Positions 7,349 through 63,166 of a stretch of DNA of 64,000 nucleotides are shown here, piece after piece. How positions within the stretch are numbered: the stretch's first letter is position 1; each line of letters starts with the position of its first letter. The notes below the pieces were generated by a model, which saw only the letters and a program-made list of their open reading frames with translations, searched no databases and had not been told where the DNA came from. The stretch is from Candidatus Doriopsillibacter californiensis (GTDB taxonomy: Bacteria > Pseudomonadota > Gammaproteobacteria > Tethybacterales > Persebacteraceae): NCBI GenBank assembly GCA_030386295.1, contig JANQAO010000001.1, positions 135,546 through 199,545 of the forward strand. The letters are read 5' to 3'. Made by a program: the position numbers and the translations under genes.

Positions 7349-8485
7349 TTACATACGTACTGGCATTACAACATACTGAAAAGATGGCTCACCGTCACCA
7401 GCTGGTTCTATTAATACACTACTTGATTCCTCTAAAAGACGCATTTTAAAAACATCTTCCTCCACAGCGGACAATATATCCAATAGAAAATTAATATTAA
7501 AACATAATTTAATTGCATCATTTTCATATTTAGCGTCAGTCTCTTCTACCGCGCTTTCATTCTCTTTATTTACACACTCTAGTTTCATCCCTTCGGGGGA
7601 AAGCGATACGATAACAGTTGCGCCACGTTCCTCAGCCAACACAGAGACTCGTTGCAGGCTGGCTAAAAAAGACCTCCGTTCCACTAAGGCTATTTTGTCA
7701 TTATTACGAGGAATAACCGAACGATAGTCAGGAAAAGTCTCCATAATAATATTAGACGTCAACTCAAATGTGTCACCACAAAACCGTACTACCCGATTGC
7801 CTGCTTCAATTTTTATTTCGTTTTCTCCTTCTGCTGACAAATTACGAATAAGCTCGTTAACACTTTTTCTTGGTAATATCAGTTGAGCATCATCTGCCAT
7901 CTTTTCCGGCGTCAGAACTTTCATTGCTAAGCGATGCCCATCCGTTGCTACAAACCGCAAACCATCAATAGAGCTTTCTAAAAACACTCCATTAAGATTG
8001 GTGCGGTGGGATTGTTGAGCAGAAGCATAATGTACTTGCCGAAGCGATTCTAATAACGTTTTTGCTTGCACGTTGAGCAACGGTTTAATATCTGTACTTT
8101 TTCCCATTAACGGAAAATTTTCTGCTGATAAAGTTTGTAATTTATATTTACCGCGCCCAGCAGTCAGTTGCATAAGAAGCTGTTTTTCTCCACCATCGTT
8201 TTTTTCTTCTTCAAATACCAAACTAACTTCCATCCCTTTTTCTAATTTTCTAATGATATCTTGGAGTTTTTTAGCGGGTACGGTTATGCCGAACTCAGCA
8301 TCTGTCTCCACATTACAAGATGACATAATTTGCATTTCTTGATCTATCGCGGTCATGCTAAGGGATGAGCCGGCTGCCTGTAATAAAACGTTAGCAAAAA
8401 TCGGGTTAATTACAGTTCCTTGGGTAACCCCACTAACTTTATCTAGACAGTGTAACAACGAACTTTGATTTGTTGTAATTTTCAC
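7349..8485 (-). CDS. dnaN: DNA polymerase III beta sliding clamp
   Basis: 378 aa with three-domain beta-clamp architecture, located immediately downstream of dnaA. Confidence 0.93.
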   Translation of the reverse strand: MKITTNQSSLLHCLDKVSGVTQGTVINPIFANVLLQAAGSSLSMTAIDQEMQIMSSCNVETDAEFGITVPAKKLQDIIRKLEKGMEVSLVFEEEKNDGGEKQLLMQLTAGRGKYKLQTLSAENFPLMGKSTDIKPLLNVQAKTLLESLRQVHYASAQQSHRTNLNGVFLESSIDGLRFVATDGHRLAMKVLTPEKMADDAQLILPRKSVNELIRNLSAEGENEIKIEAGNRVVRFCGDTFELTSNIIMETFPDYRSVIPRNNDKIALVERRSFLASLQRVSVLAEERGATVIVSLSPEGMKLECVNKENESAVEETDAKYENDAIKLCFNINFLLDILSAVEEDVFKMRLLEESSSVLIEPAGDGEPSFQYVVMPVRM

Positions 8486-8618
8486 AACGACTTCTCCTTC
8501 TTATTAAATATTAATATTAATTAAATGTTAATGATGATGTACCCTGTATAAAAACATAAAAACTATTATCCTTCATTGAAATAAAAGGAGTTGAGCTTTA
8601 TTATCTTATGTATAAAGC

Positions 8619-8627
8619 TGTGTATAA
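8619..8627. promoter_or_regulatory. Perfect DnaA box (TGTGTATAA, i.e. TTATACACA) in the AT-rich 235 bp dnaA-dnaN spacer, with a weaker TTATCCTTC at 8566-8574
   Basis: Read directly from the sequence. The spacer 8486-8720 is strongly AT-rich with repeated TTAATATTAA-type motifs (DUE-like). Confidence 0.4.
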
Positions 8628-8720
8628 CAGGTGTGTGATTATTGATAGAATAATTTTGGTTATTAAATTGCACAGAGTTATGTTTATACTGTGAAAGGGT
8701 TTTATACATGTTATCAAGCA

Positions 8721-10052
8721 TTAAGATTTAATGAGCATTTCTAAGATTTGTATTTCTTCTTGGGTTTTTGAATTGGCTTTAAGTTCTTTTTCTATTTTAC
8801 GGCAGGAATGTAATACAGTAGTATGTTCTCTATCGCCGAACTGAGCGCCAATTTCTGGCAGACTAAGGTTAGTTAGTTGTCGGCAGAGGTAGATAGCAAA
8901 GTGACGTGGTTGTGCTATTGAACGGTGACGGCTACGAGAAGATAAATCAGATACACGTAAGCGGAAAAAATCAGCTACTTTCTTTTTTATGATATCTACG
9001 TTAACTGTTTCTTTTGCGGATTCTAATAAATCGGTTAGTGCTTCGTGGCAAATTTCTAAAGAAGGCGGCTTGCCAGAAAATGTGCAGGCAGCTAAAATGC
9101 GATGTAACGCACCTTCCAGTTCACGTACGTTGGATTTTATTCGTTCAGCAACAAAACGGGTAACTTTTTCGTCCAATTTAACACCCCGGGCCAACGCTTT
9201 TTTATGCAAAATAGCTTCACGTAATTCCAGCTCAGGGGGAGCTAAATGTGTGGGTAAACCACAACGCAGACGAGAAGTTAAACGCTCCGGTAAATCACGA
9301 ATTTGTGAAGGAGCGCGGTCGCTAGTGATAATGATAATTTTATTTTCATCGTGTAATTTGTTGAAAAGAAAGAAAAATTCTTCCTGAGTGCGTTCCATAT
9401 TACCGCCGATATATTGAATATCGTCCACAATTAGTAAGTCTAGACCATCGTAACGACGTTTAAACTGGGCATGCTGATTTAAACGGCAAGCGTTAATAAC
9501 ATCGGTCATAAAGTCACGTGCCATTACATAACGCACTTTACGCGTAGGATGCAAAGATAAATAGTGGTTGGCAATAGCCTGTGCTAAATGAGTTTTGCCA
9601 AGTCCTGTGCGGCCATAAAGAAGTAACAGCGGGCTCATGTGGTCTACCGTGCCACTGCTGATAGCGCGTCCGGCAACTAAGGCAATTTCGTTTGCCCGAC
9701 CAGGCACAAAAGAGTCAAAAGTGAGATCGGCGCGCAGATTAGTTGTACGGTCTACCTGCGTTTTAGTACGCGCTGAAGGCGATGTTTTTGATGCCGGTTT
9801 TGAAATGGATTGAGCCATATCGGTCTGAAAATCTATTTGGATGTCTTTGCCAAAATGTTGTTGTGCCATTTCTCGAACTGACGGCTTAATGTTTTCAGAT
9901 AACCAGCGCACAGTAGCTTCGTTTGGTGCCTGCAACAGTAAGTGGGTATTGTCCGTCATTTTCGCCTGAGTCGGAGAAATAAAAGCGTCAAAAACCGTGT
10001 CACCAAACTGGAGACGTAACTGGGAAACACAAGATGACCAAAAATTTTCCAT
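8721..10052 (-). CDS. dnaA: Chromosomal replication initiator DnaA
   Basis: AAA+ Walker A (GRTGLGKTHL), an LLIVDDIQY box, sensor motifs and a C-terminal DNA-binding helix-turn-helix domain. 443 aa. Confidence 0.95.
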   Translation of the reverse strand: MENFWSSCVSQLRLQFGDTVFDAFISPTQAKMTDNTHLLLQAPNEATVRWLSENIKPSVREMAQQHFGKDIQIDFQTDMAQSISKPASKTSPSARTKTQVDRTTNLRADLTFDSFVPGRANEIALVAGRAISSGTVDHMSPLLLLYGRTGLGKTHLAQAIANHYLSLHPTRKVRYVMARDFMTDVINACRLNQHAQFKRRYDGLDLLIVDDIQYIGGNMERTQEEFFFLFNKLHDENKIIIITSDRAPSQIRDLPERLTSRLRCGLPTHLAPPELELREAILHKKALARGVKLDEKVTRFVAERIKSNVRELEGALHRILAACTFSGKPPSLEICHEALTDLLESAKETVNVDIIKKKVADFFRLRVSDLSSRSRHRSIAQPRHFAIYLCRQLTNLSLPEIGAQFGDREHTTVLHSCRKIEKELKANSKTQEEIQILEMLIKS

Positions 10053-58319: not shown

Positions 58320-61300
58320 GTGTGGGATTTTTGGATTGACAGAGGCGGTACTTTTACCGATATTGTTGCGCGACGCCCCGACGGCGGTTTGGAAACACGC
58401 AAGTTGTTGTCCGACAATCCGGAACAGTACGAAGATGCCGCCGTAGCCGGAGTGCGTGATTTATTAGGATTGGCAGCCAATGCGTCGTTGCCAGCCAATG
58501 CGGTCAATGTCATCAAAATGGGTACTACGGTTGCTACTAATGCTCTTTTAGAGCGCGTGGGAGCTCGCACTGTTTTATTGATTACCGCAGGTCTTGCAGA
58601 CTTGCCGTATATTGGTGAACAAAATCGCCCACGGTTGTTTGATTTGCATATTTGCCGTCCCAACATTTTGCCTGAGCGAGTAGTTGGCATTTCTGGGCGA
58701 TTGGACGCGGAAGGAGGTATTATCACTCCGCTGGATGAATCGGCAGTGCAGACGGTATTGCAGGCAGCATTTGATAATGGTATTCGCAGCGTGGCAATTG
58801 CTTTTATGCACAGCTATCTCAATCCGGTACACGAGAAGAGGGCAGCGACGATTGCAAAAGAAATTGGTTACACGCAAATATCAATCGGTCACGAGACCAG
58901 CCAGCTTATTAAAATTGTCCCTCGTGCTGATACGGCTGCACTGGACGCTTATCTGACACCGCTCTTGCGTCACTATGTAGATGGTGTAGGACGAATGCTG
59001 GGTGCGTCTTGCGGTGGTCGGTTGTTGTTTATGCGATCTAACGGTGGGCTTGTCGCCGCTAATTTGTTTCAGGGGCGAGATGCGATTCTTTCGGGGCCTG
59101 CCGGCGGTGTGGTGGGTATGGCACGCACTGCCGTTGCGGGAGGGTATGACAATGTTATCGGGTTTGATATGGGCGGCACGTCCACTGATGTTTGCCACTA
59201 TGCTGGAGAATTTGAGCGCAGCAGTGACAGTGAAATTAGTGGTTTGCGGTTACGCACGCCTATGATGCGTATTCATACAGTGGCAGCCGGTGGAGGTTCC
59301 ATATTGCGTTATGAAGACGGACGCTGCCAAGTAGGACCGCAAAGCGCTGGTGCTAATCCTGGTCCTGCCTGCTATCGCCGCGGTGGGCCGCTGACAGTAA
59401 CTGATTGCAATGTCATGTTGGGACGTATTCAGCCGACACATTTTCCTCGTGTTTTTGGTAAGAACGGAGATAAATTATTAGATGCGGCAGTAGTTAAAAA
59501 ACAATTTATTGCCTTGGCACAGACCGTTGCCGAAGAGTCTGGCAACTCTCCCTTGTCACCTGAAGAAACGGCGGTTGGATTTCTTCGCATTGCCATAGAA
59601 AACATGGCCAATGCCATTAAAAAAATTTCAGTGCAGCGCGGTTATGATATTACGTCGTATGTACTTAACAGTTTTGGCGGAGCCGGAGGCCAACACGCTT
59701 GCCAGGTTGCCGATGCGTTGGGAATGAAAACAGTTTTTACACACCCTTTCGCTGGTGTTTTATCGGCTTATGGAATGGGGCTTGCCGATATTCGCGCGCT
59801 ACGGGAACGACAATTTGAGTGCTTGGTAGATGCTGTTGTTGAAGCGGATGCAGCGCTGGCGGATATGGTAGAGGGGGCGGTGGCGGAAGTCATTGGTCAA
59901 GGCGTCGCCGAAGCTGGTATTGATATCGTCAAGCGTGTTCGCCTGCGTTACGAGGGGTCACACCAGACGTTGACTGTTCCCTTTGGCACTGCAGAAAAAA
60001 TGCGGGTAGATTTTTCAGCAACTCATAAAGTTCGATATGGATTTGTTGCTGACGAACGGGCGCTTGTTATGGAAGCGCTAGAAGTGGAGGTAATTGGTCG
60101 CAACACACTGCCGCCTGAAAATGTCTGTGAGTCGGTAACAACATTGCCAATTCCGACCGATACAGTGCGCGCTTATATTGATGGCGAATGGCGGCAGACG
60201 CCCCTGTATCGCCGAGGTGATTTGCTGTCTGGACAATCATTAGAGGGGCTTGCCATTATTAGCGAAGAGACGGCTACCACCGTGGTAGAAGACGGCTGGC
60301 AGGCGCATGTTAATTCCTACGGACATTTGATTCTTCAGCGCATTCGGATGCGTGCCAAAGAAAATATTGCTGGTGGGTGTCCTGACCCAGTTATGTTGGA
60401 AGTGTTTAATAATTTATTTATGTCTATTGCCGAACAGATGGGCTGGACATTAGCCGATACCGCGTATTCGGTCAACATTAAAGAGCGGTTGGATTTTTCG
60501 TGTGCATTATTTGACGCTGGCGGTGGACTAGTTGCCAATGCTCCGCATGTGCCGGTACATTTGGGTTCTATGGGCGAGTCGGTGCGTACCGTCATTCGCC
60601 AATGTGGTGACACTATGCAGCCGGGTGATTCGTTTATGCTCAACTCGCCCTTTGATGGTGGCACTCATCTTCCCGACATTACCGTTGTCTCGCCGATTTT
60701 TGATGATACTGGTGTGCATATTCGCTTTTTTGTCGGATCGCGTGGTCACCATGCTGACATCGGCGGACGAACTCCCGGCTCAGCTCCGCCCGACAGCCGT
60801 CACATTCAAGAAGAAGGAGTGCTTATTAGATGTTTCAAAATGGTGAGTGGTGGGAAATTGCGTGAAAAAGCCATTCGTGCTTTATTAGCTGTCGGACCCT
60901 ACCCTTGCCGTAATATTGCACAAAATATTGCTGACTTGCAGGCGCAACTGGCGGCCAACGAAACTGGCATCCGCGAAACTCAAAAAATGCTTGCACAATT
61001 TGGGTGGGAGGTAGTGCGCGCATACATGACACATGTGCAGGACAACGCTGAAGAATCCGTGCGCCGTGTTATCAAAAACCTAAATGGAGGAACTTATGTT
61101 TATCCGCTGGATAGTGGCGCGAAAATTTTGGTACGTGTTGACATAGACCGTGCAGCACGCACGGCGTGCATAGATTTTTCTGGTACTTCATTGCAGAATT
61201 CCGGTAACTACAACGTGCCGTCGGCGGTGTGCCGTGCGGCAGTATTGTATGTATTGCGTACACTTGCTGGTGCCGACATCCCGCTCAACGAAGGCTGTCT

Positions 61301-61922
61301 TAATCCTGTTAGCATCATCACGCCGGCAGGTAGTATGCTTAATCCAGACTATCCAGCGGCGGTTATCGCCGGCAATACCGAAGTTAGTCAGGCGATTGCC
61401 AACTGTCTGTTGGCGGCGGTGGGAGCACAAGCTAATTCGCAGGGAACAATGAATAATTTTGCGTGGGGAGATGAAACATTGCAAAATTACGAAACCATCG
61501 GTGGTGGCACTGGTGCTGGCCCGGACTTTGACGGTGCCAGTGCGGTGCAATCACATATGACTAATACTCGCATGACTGACCCAGAAGTATTGGAAAGGCG
61601 TTTTCCGGTGCGATTGGAAGAAATGTCTATTCGCACCGGTTCTGGCGGGTGTGGAAAATATAAAGGTGGTTGCGGCACAGTGCGGCGGTTGCGTTTTTTG
61701 CGACCAATGACAGTAACCGTATTGACATCACACCGCCGTACGCCGCCCTTGGGTATGGTTGGTGGCGGTAATGGTATGACAGGAGAAAATAGTGTGTGCA
61801 AAGCGGACGGTACGATGGTTTACTTGCGTGGTAATGATGAATGCCAAATGGAGGCGGGGGATGTTTTTGTCATGAAAACGCCGGGCGGTGGCGGGTGGGG
61901 AAAAACCAGTAATGCCGATTAG
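58320..61922 (+). CDS. 5-oxoprolinase (ATP-hydrolysing), fused hydantoinase A/B (HyuA-HyuB) type, 1200 aa
   Basis: N-terminus [14 protein letters not shown] and hydantoinase_A and _B regions in one polypeptide. Confidence 0.85.
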
Positions 61923-62109
61923 GTTGCTCGGCGTACGCCGTTGGAAAGAATTTGGGTATTGTGTGGTGAGTCATGAATAATAAGATTTTTGATATTATTG
62001 CTAAATTGTAAAAAACGAATAATGACTCAATTTATGGTACAACTTTTTCCGCAAAAACGGATGAAGATTCTAACCACGAAGAAATTGCGGCGTGGCGTGG
62101 CGGTATCTT

Positions 62110-62550
62110 ATGTCTAATTTATTTTCAATCATTCACGGACCCAATCTAAACATGCTTGGCAAGAGAGAAATCGGCATTTATGGGAAGGAAACGATGGACG
62201 ATATTAATGCTGAAATTAATCGCGAAGCGGATCGGATTGACGTTGCAGTTGATTTTTTTCAATCCAATTCAGAAGGTGAGTTGGTAACGCACATGCAGCA
62301 ATGCCGAGAAAGAGCTAAAGGCGCCGTGCTCAACGCTGGAGCGTACACGCATTATTCAATCGCTTTGCGCGATGCCATTTCGGCGGCGCAGATTCCAGTT
62401 ATTGAAGTGCATATATCCAACGTTTACAAGCGGGAAAGTTTTCGCCATGTGTCAGTGATTGCGCCTGTGTGCGCCGGGCAAATTTGTGGTTTTGGTTCGC
62501 AAGGATATATCTTGGCGCTTAAAGTGTTGGCTGAAAAATTTGATATTTAA
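62110..62550 (+). CDS. aroQ: 3-dehydroquinate dehydratase, type II (catalytically intact)
   Basis: HGPNLNMLGKREIGIYG (Arg/Tyr), NAGAYTHYS and EVHISNVYKRESFR with all canonical catalytic and binding residues. The ORF-track start at 62092 is an upstream extension. Confidence 0.9.
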   Translation: MSNLFSIIHGPNLNMLGKREIGIYGKETMDDINAEINREADRIDVAVDFFQSNSEGELVTHMQQCRERAKGAVLNAGAYTHYSIALRDAISAAQIPVIEVHISNVYKRESFRHVSVIAPVCAGQICGFGSQGYILALKVLAEKFDI

Positions 62551-62555
62551 TTGAT

Positions 62556-63011
62556 ATGAAAAACAGTGAAAAATTGAAAAAAATCCTAGTCATATCAGGA
62601 CCTAATATAAGCTTTTTGGGAGCGGATGAAACTTCCATTGATGAGCAAATTTTTTTAAAAGAAATTCATAGCACATTAAATTCGATTGGTAGTGAATTTA
62701 ATGTTGAAGTCGTTTGCGTTCAATTTGATCAAGAAAAAGAAACAATAGACTGTTTACAAAAAGCCACTGATGCGTTTAGGGGAATTATTATTAACGCAGG
62801 TATTTTGGCGCGCAATGGTTATGCACTTCGTAACGCCATTGAGGCGTTGGCTGTGCCCTGTGTTGAGGTTTTTGTTTCCAATGTTCATGCCAGTGAAGAA
62901 TGCCGCCACCAGTCTGTTATCGCTTCCGCTTGCGTTGGTGTCATCGGTGGTTTTGGTATCAAAAGTTATATTTTGGCGCTACAAGCATTAGTCCATCTGA
63001 GGGAAGTTTGA
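62556..63011 (+). CDS. Type II dehydroquinase-like paralog lacking the catalytic residues (probable pseudo-enzyme), with noticeably lower GC
   Basis: Same fold-length and GPN/NAG/SNV scaffolding, but Arg19 and Tyr24 become D/D (LGADETSID), His81 becomes R (NAGILARNG), His101 becomes F (EVFVSN) and Arg108 becomes S. AT-rich codon usage. Confidence 0.75.
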   Translation: MKNSEKLKKILVISGPNISFLGADETSIDEQIFLKEIHSTLNSIGSEFNVEVVCVQFDQEKETIDCLQKATDAFRGIIINAGILARNGYALRNAIEALAVPCVEVFVSNVHASEECRHQSVIASACVGVIGGFGIKSYILALQALVHLREV

Positions 63012-63166
63012 TGACATATGGTGGAAGCGTGTTGACGGTATGCGCCGGGTATACGCCACAAAAAATCGCAAATAATATTGCGAGTCAACATTTTTTTATT
63101 CTCAAAGAATATTGTTGCGCACAAAAATCGGTTGGTGATTTTTTTACTAGAAGCTAGAAGATTGGT

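Follow-up and report, generated by a model that had tools for sequence, protein, structure and literature searches.

Near the end of the 64,000-nucleotide window analysed here, a stretch of the genome of the sea-slug symbiont Candidatus Doriopsillibacter californiensis (Df01), two dehydroquinase-like genes lie side by side on the plus strand. The first, ORF1 (62110..62550), encodes a 146 amino acid protein that its profile scores, residues and phylogeny assign to an A-type type II 3-dehydroquinate dehydratase (AroQ). The start codon with homology support is the ATG at 62110, in agreement with the JGI gene call and with the N-termini of orthologues; a sequence-only reading of this DNA had recognised the gene correctly but began it at a GTG at 62092, probably 18 nt too far upstream. 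ORF1 scores 198 bits against PF01220 (cutoff 23.3 bits) and 203.8 bits against TIGR01088, where the equivalog cutoff is 169.85 bits, and 12 of 12 key residues (P11, N12, R19, Y24, N75, H81, D88, E99, H101, S103, R108 and R112) are canonical. With every catalytic and binding residue in place and the equivalog cutoff exceeded, its description as an intact type II dehydroquinase holds. ORF1 falls within a monophyletic A clade, is 74–77% identical to the A genes of two loci designated L001 and L090 and 62–78% identical to A orthologues in other phyla, and has alterations at just one of 57 clade-conserved positions. The gene aroC is found two genes away. By these sequence features ORF1 is presumably the working dehydroquinase of the Df01 cell.

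A spacer of 5 nt (62551..62555, plus strand) separates the ORF1 stop codon from the ATG of ORF2 (62556..63011, plus strand; 151 amino acids), which we classify as a site-degenerate B-type AroQ paralogue. ORF2 belongs to the same family (PF01220, 131.5 bits) but its TIGR01088 score of 139 lies below the equivalog cutoff, and it shares 38% identity with ORF1 in a gap-free alignment. Its residues were checked in an ungapped alignment with the Mycobacterium tuberculosis enzyme (ORF2 position = M. tuberculosis number + 5) and in a multiple alignment, and the five substitutions reported previously (Arg19Asp, Tyr24Asp, His81Arg, His101Phe and Arg108Ser) are seen in both. Two further changes affect the essential, trans-acting aspartate (Asp88Asn) and Gly78 (Gly78Ile). 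The claim that essentially every catalytic residue has been lost is thus right about the five but slightly overstated, since Pro11, Asn12, Asn75, Gly77, Glu99, Ser103 and Arg112 are retained. Amongst the substrate contacts, Asn75, Ser103 and Arg112 are kept whilst His81 and Arg108 are the ones replaced.

Mutagenesis has shown that Arg19, Tyr24 and Asp88' are essential in type II dehydroquinases, with Tyr24 acting as the catalytic base and His101 as the proton donor (PMC6011038). ORF2 lacks all four, which supports its designation as a pseudo-enzyme: judged by these residues it is incapable of dehydrating dehydroquinate, and the ability to bind dehydroquinate has probably been lost too. The fold, by contrast, is kept, as had been proposed: an AF2 model has a pTM of 0.74 and its top Foldseek matches are all type II dehydroquinases (TM ~0.82), with confidence lowest at the lid (residues 18–31) and at 109–123. 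That ORF2 might nevertheless be an active dehydroquinase with its catalytic residues at shifted positions is barely credible. No evidence for this was found: alignments to the solved M. tuberculosis, Bacillus subtilis and Thermus thermophilus enzymes are ungapped over 136–139 residues, therefore there is no register shift, and neither the surroundings of the lid nor position 101 offers a Tyr, His or Arg. The catalytic residues are not conserved at shifted positions relative to the characterised enzymes.

Where did this pair come from? ORF1 and ORF2 are in tandem and ORF2 is, as noted previously, more AT-rich than its surroundings: its GC content is 0.386, where 56 ORFs of the window average 0.480 (sd 0.032; z = −2.9) and none of the others is lower, and its GC3 is 0.309 against 0.436. 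Both features would suit a gene copied from ORF1 recently and on the spot, or one taken up on its own from a foreign source and marked by its AT-richness; a duplication and a horizontal acquisition had both been suggested. The sequence comparisons argue strongly against either, however. ORF2 is 55–61% identical to B-type genes of other phyla and ORF1 is closer still to its own orthologues, whereas their mutual identity is that low 38%, which does not fit a local tandem duplication. Nor is a horizontally acquired decoy supported: the A tree and the B tree both place Df01 beside L001 (in a neighbour-joining tree ORF2, at the end of a long branch, pairs with the B of L001 as its sister), therefore the pair was inherited together. 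The same A-then-B order recurs at ~65 loci. Finally, AT-richness fails as a mark of foreign origin, given that dnaN, an essential gene of this window, matches ORF2 in both GC and GC3 and that intergenic GC is 0.384. We consider a duplicate or foreign ORF2 very improbable. On phylogeny and gene order, ORF1 and ORF2 instead represent both dehydroquinase-like members of a three-gene module of ancient origin.

This module comprises a canonical AroQ (A), a second AroQ (B) and a small TIM-barrel epimerase-like protein, and is found at ~65 loci within catabolic operons, mostly in Spirochaetota but also in several proteobacterial lineages. The operons look suited to the use of quinate- or shikimate-like acids. 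The third protein (~255 amino acids, AP_endonuc_2) has distant relatives among keto-sugar and inosose epimerases or isomerases and weakly resembles IolO and IolI. Like the A clade, the B clade is monophyletic; its mean column identity is 80%. In B proteins the proton donor His101 is replaced by Phe or Tyr and the trans-acting Asp88' by Ser, but Arg19 and Tyr24 of the lid are normally preserved, together with His81, Arg108 and Arg112, which contact the ligand; a signature of S9, K20, S88 and F101, with R19, Y24, H81 and R108 kept, is present in 45 sequences. Of this signature (Ser9, Lys20, Ser88, Phe/Tyr101) ORF2 has Ser9 and Phe101, with Asn at position 88 and, at position 20, a Glu that it shares with the gammaproteobacterial B genes of L019 and L020.

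An A-type gene lies directly upstream of every B-type gene (~48 GTDB species loci), and in samples seeded with A genes B is present at 16 of 17 loci. The exception, L173, has an A-clade gene (placed there in 100 of 100 bootstraps) but neither a B nor a remnant of one, so the proposition that A never occurs without B had to be abandoned. Natural A–B fusions are found at four loci (L035, L042, L076 and L099) in three genomes, L035 and L042 being two diverged copies in one genome. In NCBI and JGI annotation, all B copies are at present labelled type II 3-dehydroquinate dehydratase. Searches of the literature for type II dehydroquinases described as pairs, heteromers or pseudoenzymes returned nothing relevant and no paper describing the module, and the Df01 paper and its supplements do not mention aroQ, aroD or shikimate. 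The A/B/TIM two-dehydroquinase module is old, widespread and apparently undescribed.

In Df01 the module is incomplete. Where intact modules have the TIM-barrel gene, the window has only a 48-codon ORF (63011..63157, plus strand) that is called by JGI, has no Pfam match and is probably non-coding. Searches with five TIM proteins (tblastn) found no significant homologue or remnant downstream of ORF2 or anywhere in the window, the weak matches within the 48-codon ORF having E > 2. Between the convergent ORF2 and glutathione S-transferase (GST) genes is a palindromic hairpin flanked by runs of T and A (63066..63083). A terminator-like site is reported here on the minus strand, and on the plus strand a T-run follows the palindromic stem; by this match to the consensus, the hairpin is likely to be a shared transcription stop that ends the ORF1–ORF2 unit. 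The neighbourhood of ORF2 contains no new partner gene and no IolM- or IolN-type genes are present in the window, whilst the flanking oxoprolinase and GST genes show no synteny with other A–B loci.

Loss of the TIM gene and decay of the B site go together across the clade. At all 52 loci with a TIM gene, B keeps Arg19, Tyr24, His81 and Arg108. Where it is absent, B is degenerate in five independent lineages (the window, L044, L063, L076 and L099) and intact at four loci (Fisher p = 2e-5). ORF2, with all four residues replaced and no TIM gene downstream, conforms to this pattern. In each of the five lineages B is still open, and in two of them, L076 and L099, the degenerate B domain is fused to A. 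Read from this distribution, the loss of His101 is ancient and common to the whole B clade, whereas the other four losses are lineage-specific and track loss of the TIM gene. The proteobacterial relatives show several states: L001, L090 and L176 have the full operon; in L092 the TIM gene is cut to a 64-amino-acid internal-deletion relic beside an intact B; and at the Df01 locus the TIM gene has disappeared together with all of the catabolic surroundings, and the B site is degenerate.

Why, then, does ORF2 persist? By the comparisons above it is a dead B subunit left behind when the module was dismantled: a B gene that, its TIM partner and catabolic setting gone, has also shed Arg19, Tyr24, His81 and Arg108. 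The reading we prefer, whilst judging its chances to be no better than even, is that it is kept as a non-catalytic structural partner of the ORF1 product. According to this scheme, ORF2 would still be made, joining the ORF1 product as a structural subunit of the dehydroquinase oligomer. A scaffolding partner had been suggested from the sequence alone, and the idea is plausible. Such a role would explain why ORF2 is open after decay of its ligand site, as B is in four other lineages. The co-inheritance of A and B, the fusions and the five lineages with open but site-degenerate B genes all count in its favour; that L173 has A alone counts against it, as A can evidently exist without B.

A serious rival, to which we assign a lesser though appreciable probability, is that ORF2 no longer has a function. 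With the catabolic module dismantled, B would have lost its role, and the gene would be a slowly decaying relic that drifts towards mutational equilibrium and eventual deletion and has yet to acquire a stop codon or frameshift. The states described above can be read as a decay series with L173, which belongs to the A clade but lies outside this subclade, as its B-less end point. Several properties of ORF2 favour slow decay and weigh against a partner role. Its GC content equals that of intergenic DNA. It is the fastest-evolving B in the set, with a B/A distance ratio of 1.51 against a median of 0.75 and alterations at 20 of 72 B-conserved positions. No Shine–Dalgarno motif was found upstream of it, although this comparison does not discriminate because several intact B genes, some with overlapping stop and start codons (A–B spacing at other loci ranges from a 4-nt overlap to ~30 nt), likewise have none. 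In a substitution-only neutral simulation, moreover, the chance that ORF2 would still be open was 7–23%, and its intactness is thus weak evidence of selection.

Other observations are harder to reconcile with a relic. Against the B consensus ORF2 has no indel or stop codon over 146 aligned positions, despite ~45–65 inferred extra nucleotide substitutions, and its changes are concentrated at the active site (13 of 32 positions in active-site segments against 7 of 40 elsewhere; p = 0.037, post hoc). Degenerate copies that are far more diverged, with 54% (L063), 53% (L076) and 35% (L099) identity to the B consensus, are also open or in frame, two of them as fusions with A. In lineages without the TIM gene B is retained much more often than it is absent, open degenerate copies in four other lineages standing against the single complete loss in L173, and the low GC is not diagnostic in view of dnaN. 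Selection on ORF2 itself is not measurable, because dS is saturated or not computable in comparison with the sister locus L001 and because every Df01 contig, whichever of several samples it came from, has the pair in 100% identical form. A C-terminal block, SVIAPxCVGVIGGFGxxSYxLALxALVxL, is kept in all degenerate B copies. Special preservation of this end within ORF2 was considered and rejected: counted from the alignment with L001, any advantage of its C-terminal half over its N-terminal half in preservation is not significant, and preservation holds only as a pattern of the five degenerate copies. The GC content of the two halves is 0.316 (N-terminal) and 0.456 (C-terminal).

Alternatively, the pocket of ORF2, remodelled by Asp19, Asp24, Arg81, Asn88, Ser108 and Ile78, might bind another ligand, giving the protein a new function as a sensor, a regulator or an enzyme for a different reaction. 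Radical substitutions are grouped in the lid and pocket while the scaffold is preserved, and throughout the B clade the site is already remodelled yet strongly conserved (K20, S88, F101). Even so, we think this improbable. The five degenerate lineages share no new set of residues (D, G, E, a gap and P at position 19; D, Y, a gap, D and S at 24; S, G, L, R and D at 108), and without convergence the pattern looks like relaxation rather than adaptation. The lid and residues 109–123, moreover, are exactly where confidence in the AF2 model is lowest, and a new partner gene is missing from the neighbourhood.

How do ORF1 and ORF2 compare with known systems? Type II dehydroquinases are antibiotic targets, and the known enzymes are described as homododecamers encoded by one gene each. 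With canonical AroQ/DHQ2 proteins such as those of M. tuberculosis, Streptomyces coelicolor and Helicobacter pylori the pair shares the flavodoxin-like fold and the family (PF01220, TIGR01088), ORF1 as a full member. ORF2 differs in lacking Arg19, Tyr24, Asp88', His101, His81 and Arg108, as does the whole B clade in lacking His101 and Asp88', and B always adjoins a diverged A paralogue. The top PDB sequence match of ORF2 is B. subtilis YqhS (PDB 1GQO), a natural type II dehydroquinase homologue with a substituted lid tyrosine (segment EPEVFG, Phe at position 24). YqhS, however, has no paired gene, and it keeps Arg19, His81, Asp88, His101 and Arg108.

As a paralogue of an active-type enzyme that lacks the catalytic residues, ORF2 is prozyme-like. 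For the prozymes of trypanosomatid S-adenosylmethionine decarboxylase (AdoMetDC) and deoxyhypusine synthase (PMC5201418, PMC3663545), complex formation and activation are reported to have been shown biochemically. ORF2 and ORF1 are similar in that a dead paralogue is kept beside, and possibly assembles with, an active enzyme; the A–B association differs in being deduced from the fusions and from co-inheritance, and in L173 an A-clade gene stands alone. In Candida albicans Aro1, an inactive type I dehydroquinase domain is retained (PMC9074039). There too an inactive dehydroquinase module is kept, within a larger shikimate-pathway assembly, but the domain has the type I fold, is part of a pentafunctional protein and has its missing activity supplied by a separate enzyme. 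The likeness to the Thermotoga-type inositol enzymes IolM, IolN and IolO (NCBIfam NF041097, NF041098 and NF041099) concerns the genomic context of the module: spirochaete-type loci encode an equivalog-level IolN (497.7 bits; cutoff 245) and an IolM-like Zn-dependent alcohol dehydrogenase (Zn-ADH), whereas Thermotoga-type inositol pathways have no dehydroquinase-like proteins.

A wider and rather doubtful proposal, offered tentatively, is that A, B and the TIM protein form an undescribed hetero-oligomeric dehydroquinase-like system with B as a ligand-binding component, perhaps the core of an oxygen-independent route that cleaves the quinate/shikimate ring without first making an aromatic intermediate. 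A shikimate/quinate dehydrogenase, together with A, would convert quinate or shikimate to dehydroquinate. This would be oxidised further and its ring opened by hydrolysis, through IolM- and IolN-like enzymes in spirochaetes or a TPP enzyme in proteobacteria, giving products that retain the CH2-C(OH)(COOH)-CH2 core of quinate. This core could appear as 4-carboxy-4-hydroxy-2-oxoadipate, to be cleaved by a LigK-type aldolase, or as citryl-CoA, which citryl-CoA lyase would cleave. As a subunit without the catalytic His, B would bind a ligand, its site acting jointly with the TIM epimerase. A literature search for an IolN- or citryl-CoA-linked quinate pathway returned nothing relevant.

If the proposal is true, ORF2 of Df01 would be a natural 'site-dead' B that exposes a second, purely structural role of the subunit. 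ORF2 offers a clean natural case either of an active enzyme that depends on a dead paralogue or of gene loss caught part-way, and the strict link between the B ligand site and the TIM gene makes a catabolic module of anaerobic Spirochaetota and marine proteobacteria, so far uncharacterised, accessible to testing. Type II dehydroquinases are currently treated as single-gene homododecamers. A widespread clade in which A and B are obligate neighbours, in some cases fused, and in which B is strongly conserved although it lacks the catalytic His and the trans-acting Asp, would alter the reading of many 'aroQ' annotations.

The nudibranch Doriopsilla fulva hosts Candidatus Persebacteraceae bacterium Df01 (Ca. 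Doriopsillibacter californiensis), a symbiont that carries two aroQ genes on one strand, 5 nt apart. ORF1 most likely starts at the ATG at 62110 (146 aa), where the JGI gene call and ortholog N-termini agree, and at 203.8 bits against TIGR01088 (cutoff 169.85) its product is an equivalog-level type II dehydroquinase. ORF2 (62556-63011, 151 aa; PF01220, 131.5 bits) reaches 139 bits with TIGR01088, under the equivalog cutoff. The two proteins are 38% identical without gaps. ORF2 also aligns gap-free with the M. tuberculosis enzyme, so that its positions equal the M. tuberculosis numbers plus five, and the five substitutions reported by the sequence-only reading (R19D, Y24D, H81R, H101F and R108S) stand rather than being shifted residues; D88N and G78I can be added, whilst Pro11, Asn12, Asn75, Gly77, Glu99, Ser103 and Arg112 are retained. 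In DHQ2, three residues have been shown to be essential: Arg19, Tyr24 and Asp88', the last supplied by the adjacent subunit. Elimination of the C1 hydroxyl relies on His101 as its proton donor, and the C5-OH is bound by both His81 and Arg112. Besides binding the C4-OH, Asp88' takes the proton from Tyr24, whose pKa is lowered with the help of Arg108 (PMC6011038). Given these roles, ORF2 is predicted to be incapable of acting as a dehydroquinase, and the label of pseudo-enzyme is right for catalysis, with essential Arg19, Tyr24 and Asp88' and the donor His101 all replaced. The DHQ2 fold is kept in the AF2 model, as had been claimed (pTM 0.74, mean pLDDT 71.8; the lid, 18-31, and residues 109-123 are the only low-confidence stretches), and DHQ2 structures make up all of the best Foldseek matches, at TM ~0.82.

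The nearest homologues of ORF2 (55-61% identity) are not ORF1-like. They come from Spirochaetota, Desulfocapsaceae, SAR324, Oceanospirillaceae, Pseudomonadales and Prolixibacteraceae, and all have Phe, rarely Tyr, at position 101. Three unrelated long contigs encode DHquinase_II, DHquinase_II and AP_endonuc_2 consecutively, the upstream gene being 62-74% identical to ORF1. The same pair recurs across ~48 GTDB species representatives: an ORF1-like (A-type) gene lies directly upstream of every ORF2-like (B-type) gene and a ~255-aa TIM-barrel gene directly downstream of nearly all of them. A copies are fully canonical without exception in the residue table; the B pattern is Ser9, Arg19, Lys20, Tyr24, Asn75, His81, Ser88, Glu99, Phe101, Ser103, Arg108 and Arg112, within a strongly conserved clade (80% mean column identity). 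By these residues, the B clade is missing both the proton donor and the Asp that acts in trans, with lid and ligand contacts kept. In two otherwise intact proteobacterial B proteins the conserved Pro11 of the GPN motif, which holds a structural water, is replaced (SGVNLN at L090:6483-6935, SGANLN at L092:6459-6911).

In NJ trees, A and B form two separate monophyletic clades, and Df01 is sister to the comparison locus L001 in both, from which it follows that the pair was inherited jointly. These congruent trees exclude both local duplication of ORF1 as the source of ORF2 and separate acquisition of B by Df01; the suggestion of a horizontally acquired ORF2 was therefore wrong.

The AT-richness noted earlier is real: of the 56 window ORFs none has a lower GC than ORF2 (0.386; mean 0.480 +/- 0.032), whose GC3 is 0.309 against 0.436, although essential dnaN equals it in both GC and GC3. 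On the minus strand, dnaN (7349-8485, GC 0.390) and dnaA (8721-10052, GC 0.423) are both unusually AT-rich for the window, and their presence in region 7349-10052 probably places the chromosomal replication origin near 10 kb. The neighbours of the aroQ pair are an oxoprolinase-like gene on one side and a GST gene in convergent orientation on the other, with aroC just outside; the oxoprolinase-like gene, a fused hydantoinase A/B of 1200 aa directly upstream of ORF1 (58320-61922), adjoins an A-B pair in Df01 only. A JGI-called 48-codon ORF (63011-63157), whose ATG overlaps the ORF2 stop (TGATG), is probably not a gene, since a search for a family match found none and a terminator-like hairpin (63066-63083) lies inside it. 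Two Df01-derived assemblies, 100% identical over a common 11.4 kb, differ in gene order downstream of recJ (PPDK and pantothenate genes in L005:13800-20400, rpiA and a DAO/GCV_T gene in L004), reflecting either rearrangement or an assembly difference.

The TIM protein is distant kin of ketose 3-epimerases, IolI and 3-keto-glucoside 4-epimerase (E ~1e-6), with weak matches to IolO. Among 61 informative A+B loci, the B site is intact in all 52 with the TIM gene, and in four of the nine without it, the other five being degenerate (Fisher p = 2e-5). It follows that selection acts on the ligand-site residues of B only as long as the TIM enzyme is there. The degenerate cases (the window, L044, L063, L076 and L099) each represent their own lineage and have different replacement amino acids at ligand-site positions, which looks like relaxation rather than convergence on a new function. 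Intact B without TIM occurs in one gammaproteobacterial lineage (L019, L020 and L101) and in L092, where a 64-aa TIM relic (L092:6908-7102) bears a fresh in-frame internal deletion beside a complete B signature: the N-terminal ~27 residues, 74% identical to L090 TIM 5-27, are fused straight to the C-terminal ~32 (211-242).

Why, then, does ORF2 persist? In four loci A and B form one polypeptide: in L035:7506-8426 and L042:7329-8426, which are diverged copies from a single Spirochaetota genome, and in L076:7455-8363 and L099:1403-2386, where B is strongly degenerate and no TIM gene follows. All degenerate B proteins retain a B-specific C-terminal block (SVIAPxCVGVIGGFGxxSYxLALxALVxL). Aligned with the B consensus, ORF2 shows no insertion or deletion, and of the 20 clade-conserved positions at which it has changed, 13 lie in lid and active-site segments (13/32 against 7/40 elsewhere; p = 0.037, post hoc). 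Together these features favour a site-independent, probably structural, role of B with A, making the scaffolding partner of AroQ raised by the sequence-only reading plausible. ORF2 might, however, simply be a decaying relic. It is the fastest-evolving B of the set (B/A distance ratio 1.51, median 0.75); relative to L001, the distance excess of Df01 amounts to 0.273 in B but just 0.044 in A; 20/72 conserved positions are changed, against 1/57 in ORF1; and in the comparison with L001, B has a dN of 0.313 and A one of 0.175, although A and B resemble each other in other sister pairs (with dS saturated). Its GC equals that of intergenic DNA (0.384), and a substitution-only simulation gives a 7-23% chance of its still being open under neutrality. 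A plausible decay series runs from the full operon (L001, L090, L176) through TIM deletion (L092) to a dead B site (Df01). Beyond that group, B is wholly lost at L173:3001-3465, an A-clade dehydroquinase (100/100 bootstraps) without B or B remnant, followed 115 bp downstream by an outer-membrane efflux protein gene; A is thus not universally dependent on B. This is the only A without B found: A-seeded searches place B beside A in 16/17 informative loci, and those lone AroQs that share no more than 68% identity with the A consensus group outside the A clade. Weighing persistence against decay, we put an even chance on ORF2 persisting as a non-catalytic partner of A, and hold the relic to be a less likely but serious alternative.

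Where it is intact, the module occurs within catabolic operons of two types; the reading of this context is inference and reaches further than the original observation. The spirochaete type (L027, L029, L030, L033, L003 and L174) encodes shikimate/quinate dehydrogenase, an IolM-like Zn-ADH, an equivalog-level IolN ring-opening hydrolase (497.7 bits, cutoff 245), a LigK-type 4-carboxy-4-hydroxy-2-oxoadipate (CHA) aldolase (207.7, cutoff 179), Ldh_2, AFOR or aldehyde dehydrogenase, a TRAP transporter and a GntR regulator. The proteobacterial type (L001, L090, L091 and L176) encodes citryl-CoA lyase (408 bits, cutoff 261), a TRAP transporter, a second AP_endonuc_2 protein, acylating aldehyde dehydrogenase and a TPP enzyme. 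In each type the predicted end-product carries the CH2-C(OH)(COOH)-CH2 unit of quinate C2-C1-C6, and this gene content suggests an undescribed ring cleavage of quinate/shikimate that would proceed without an aromatic intermediate; our literature search found no paper on such a pathway or on paired DHQ2. None of this catabolic context is left in Df01. The conserved A/B/TIM module is the more interesting result, with ORF2 its naturally site-dead member.
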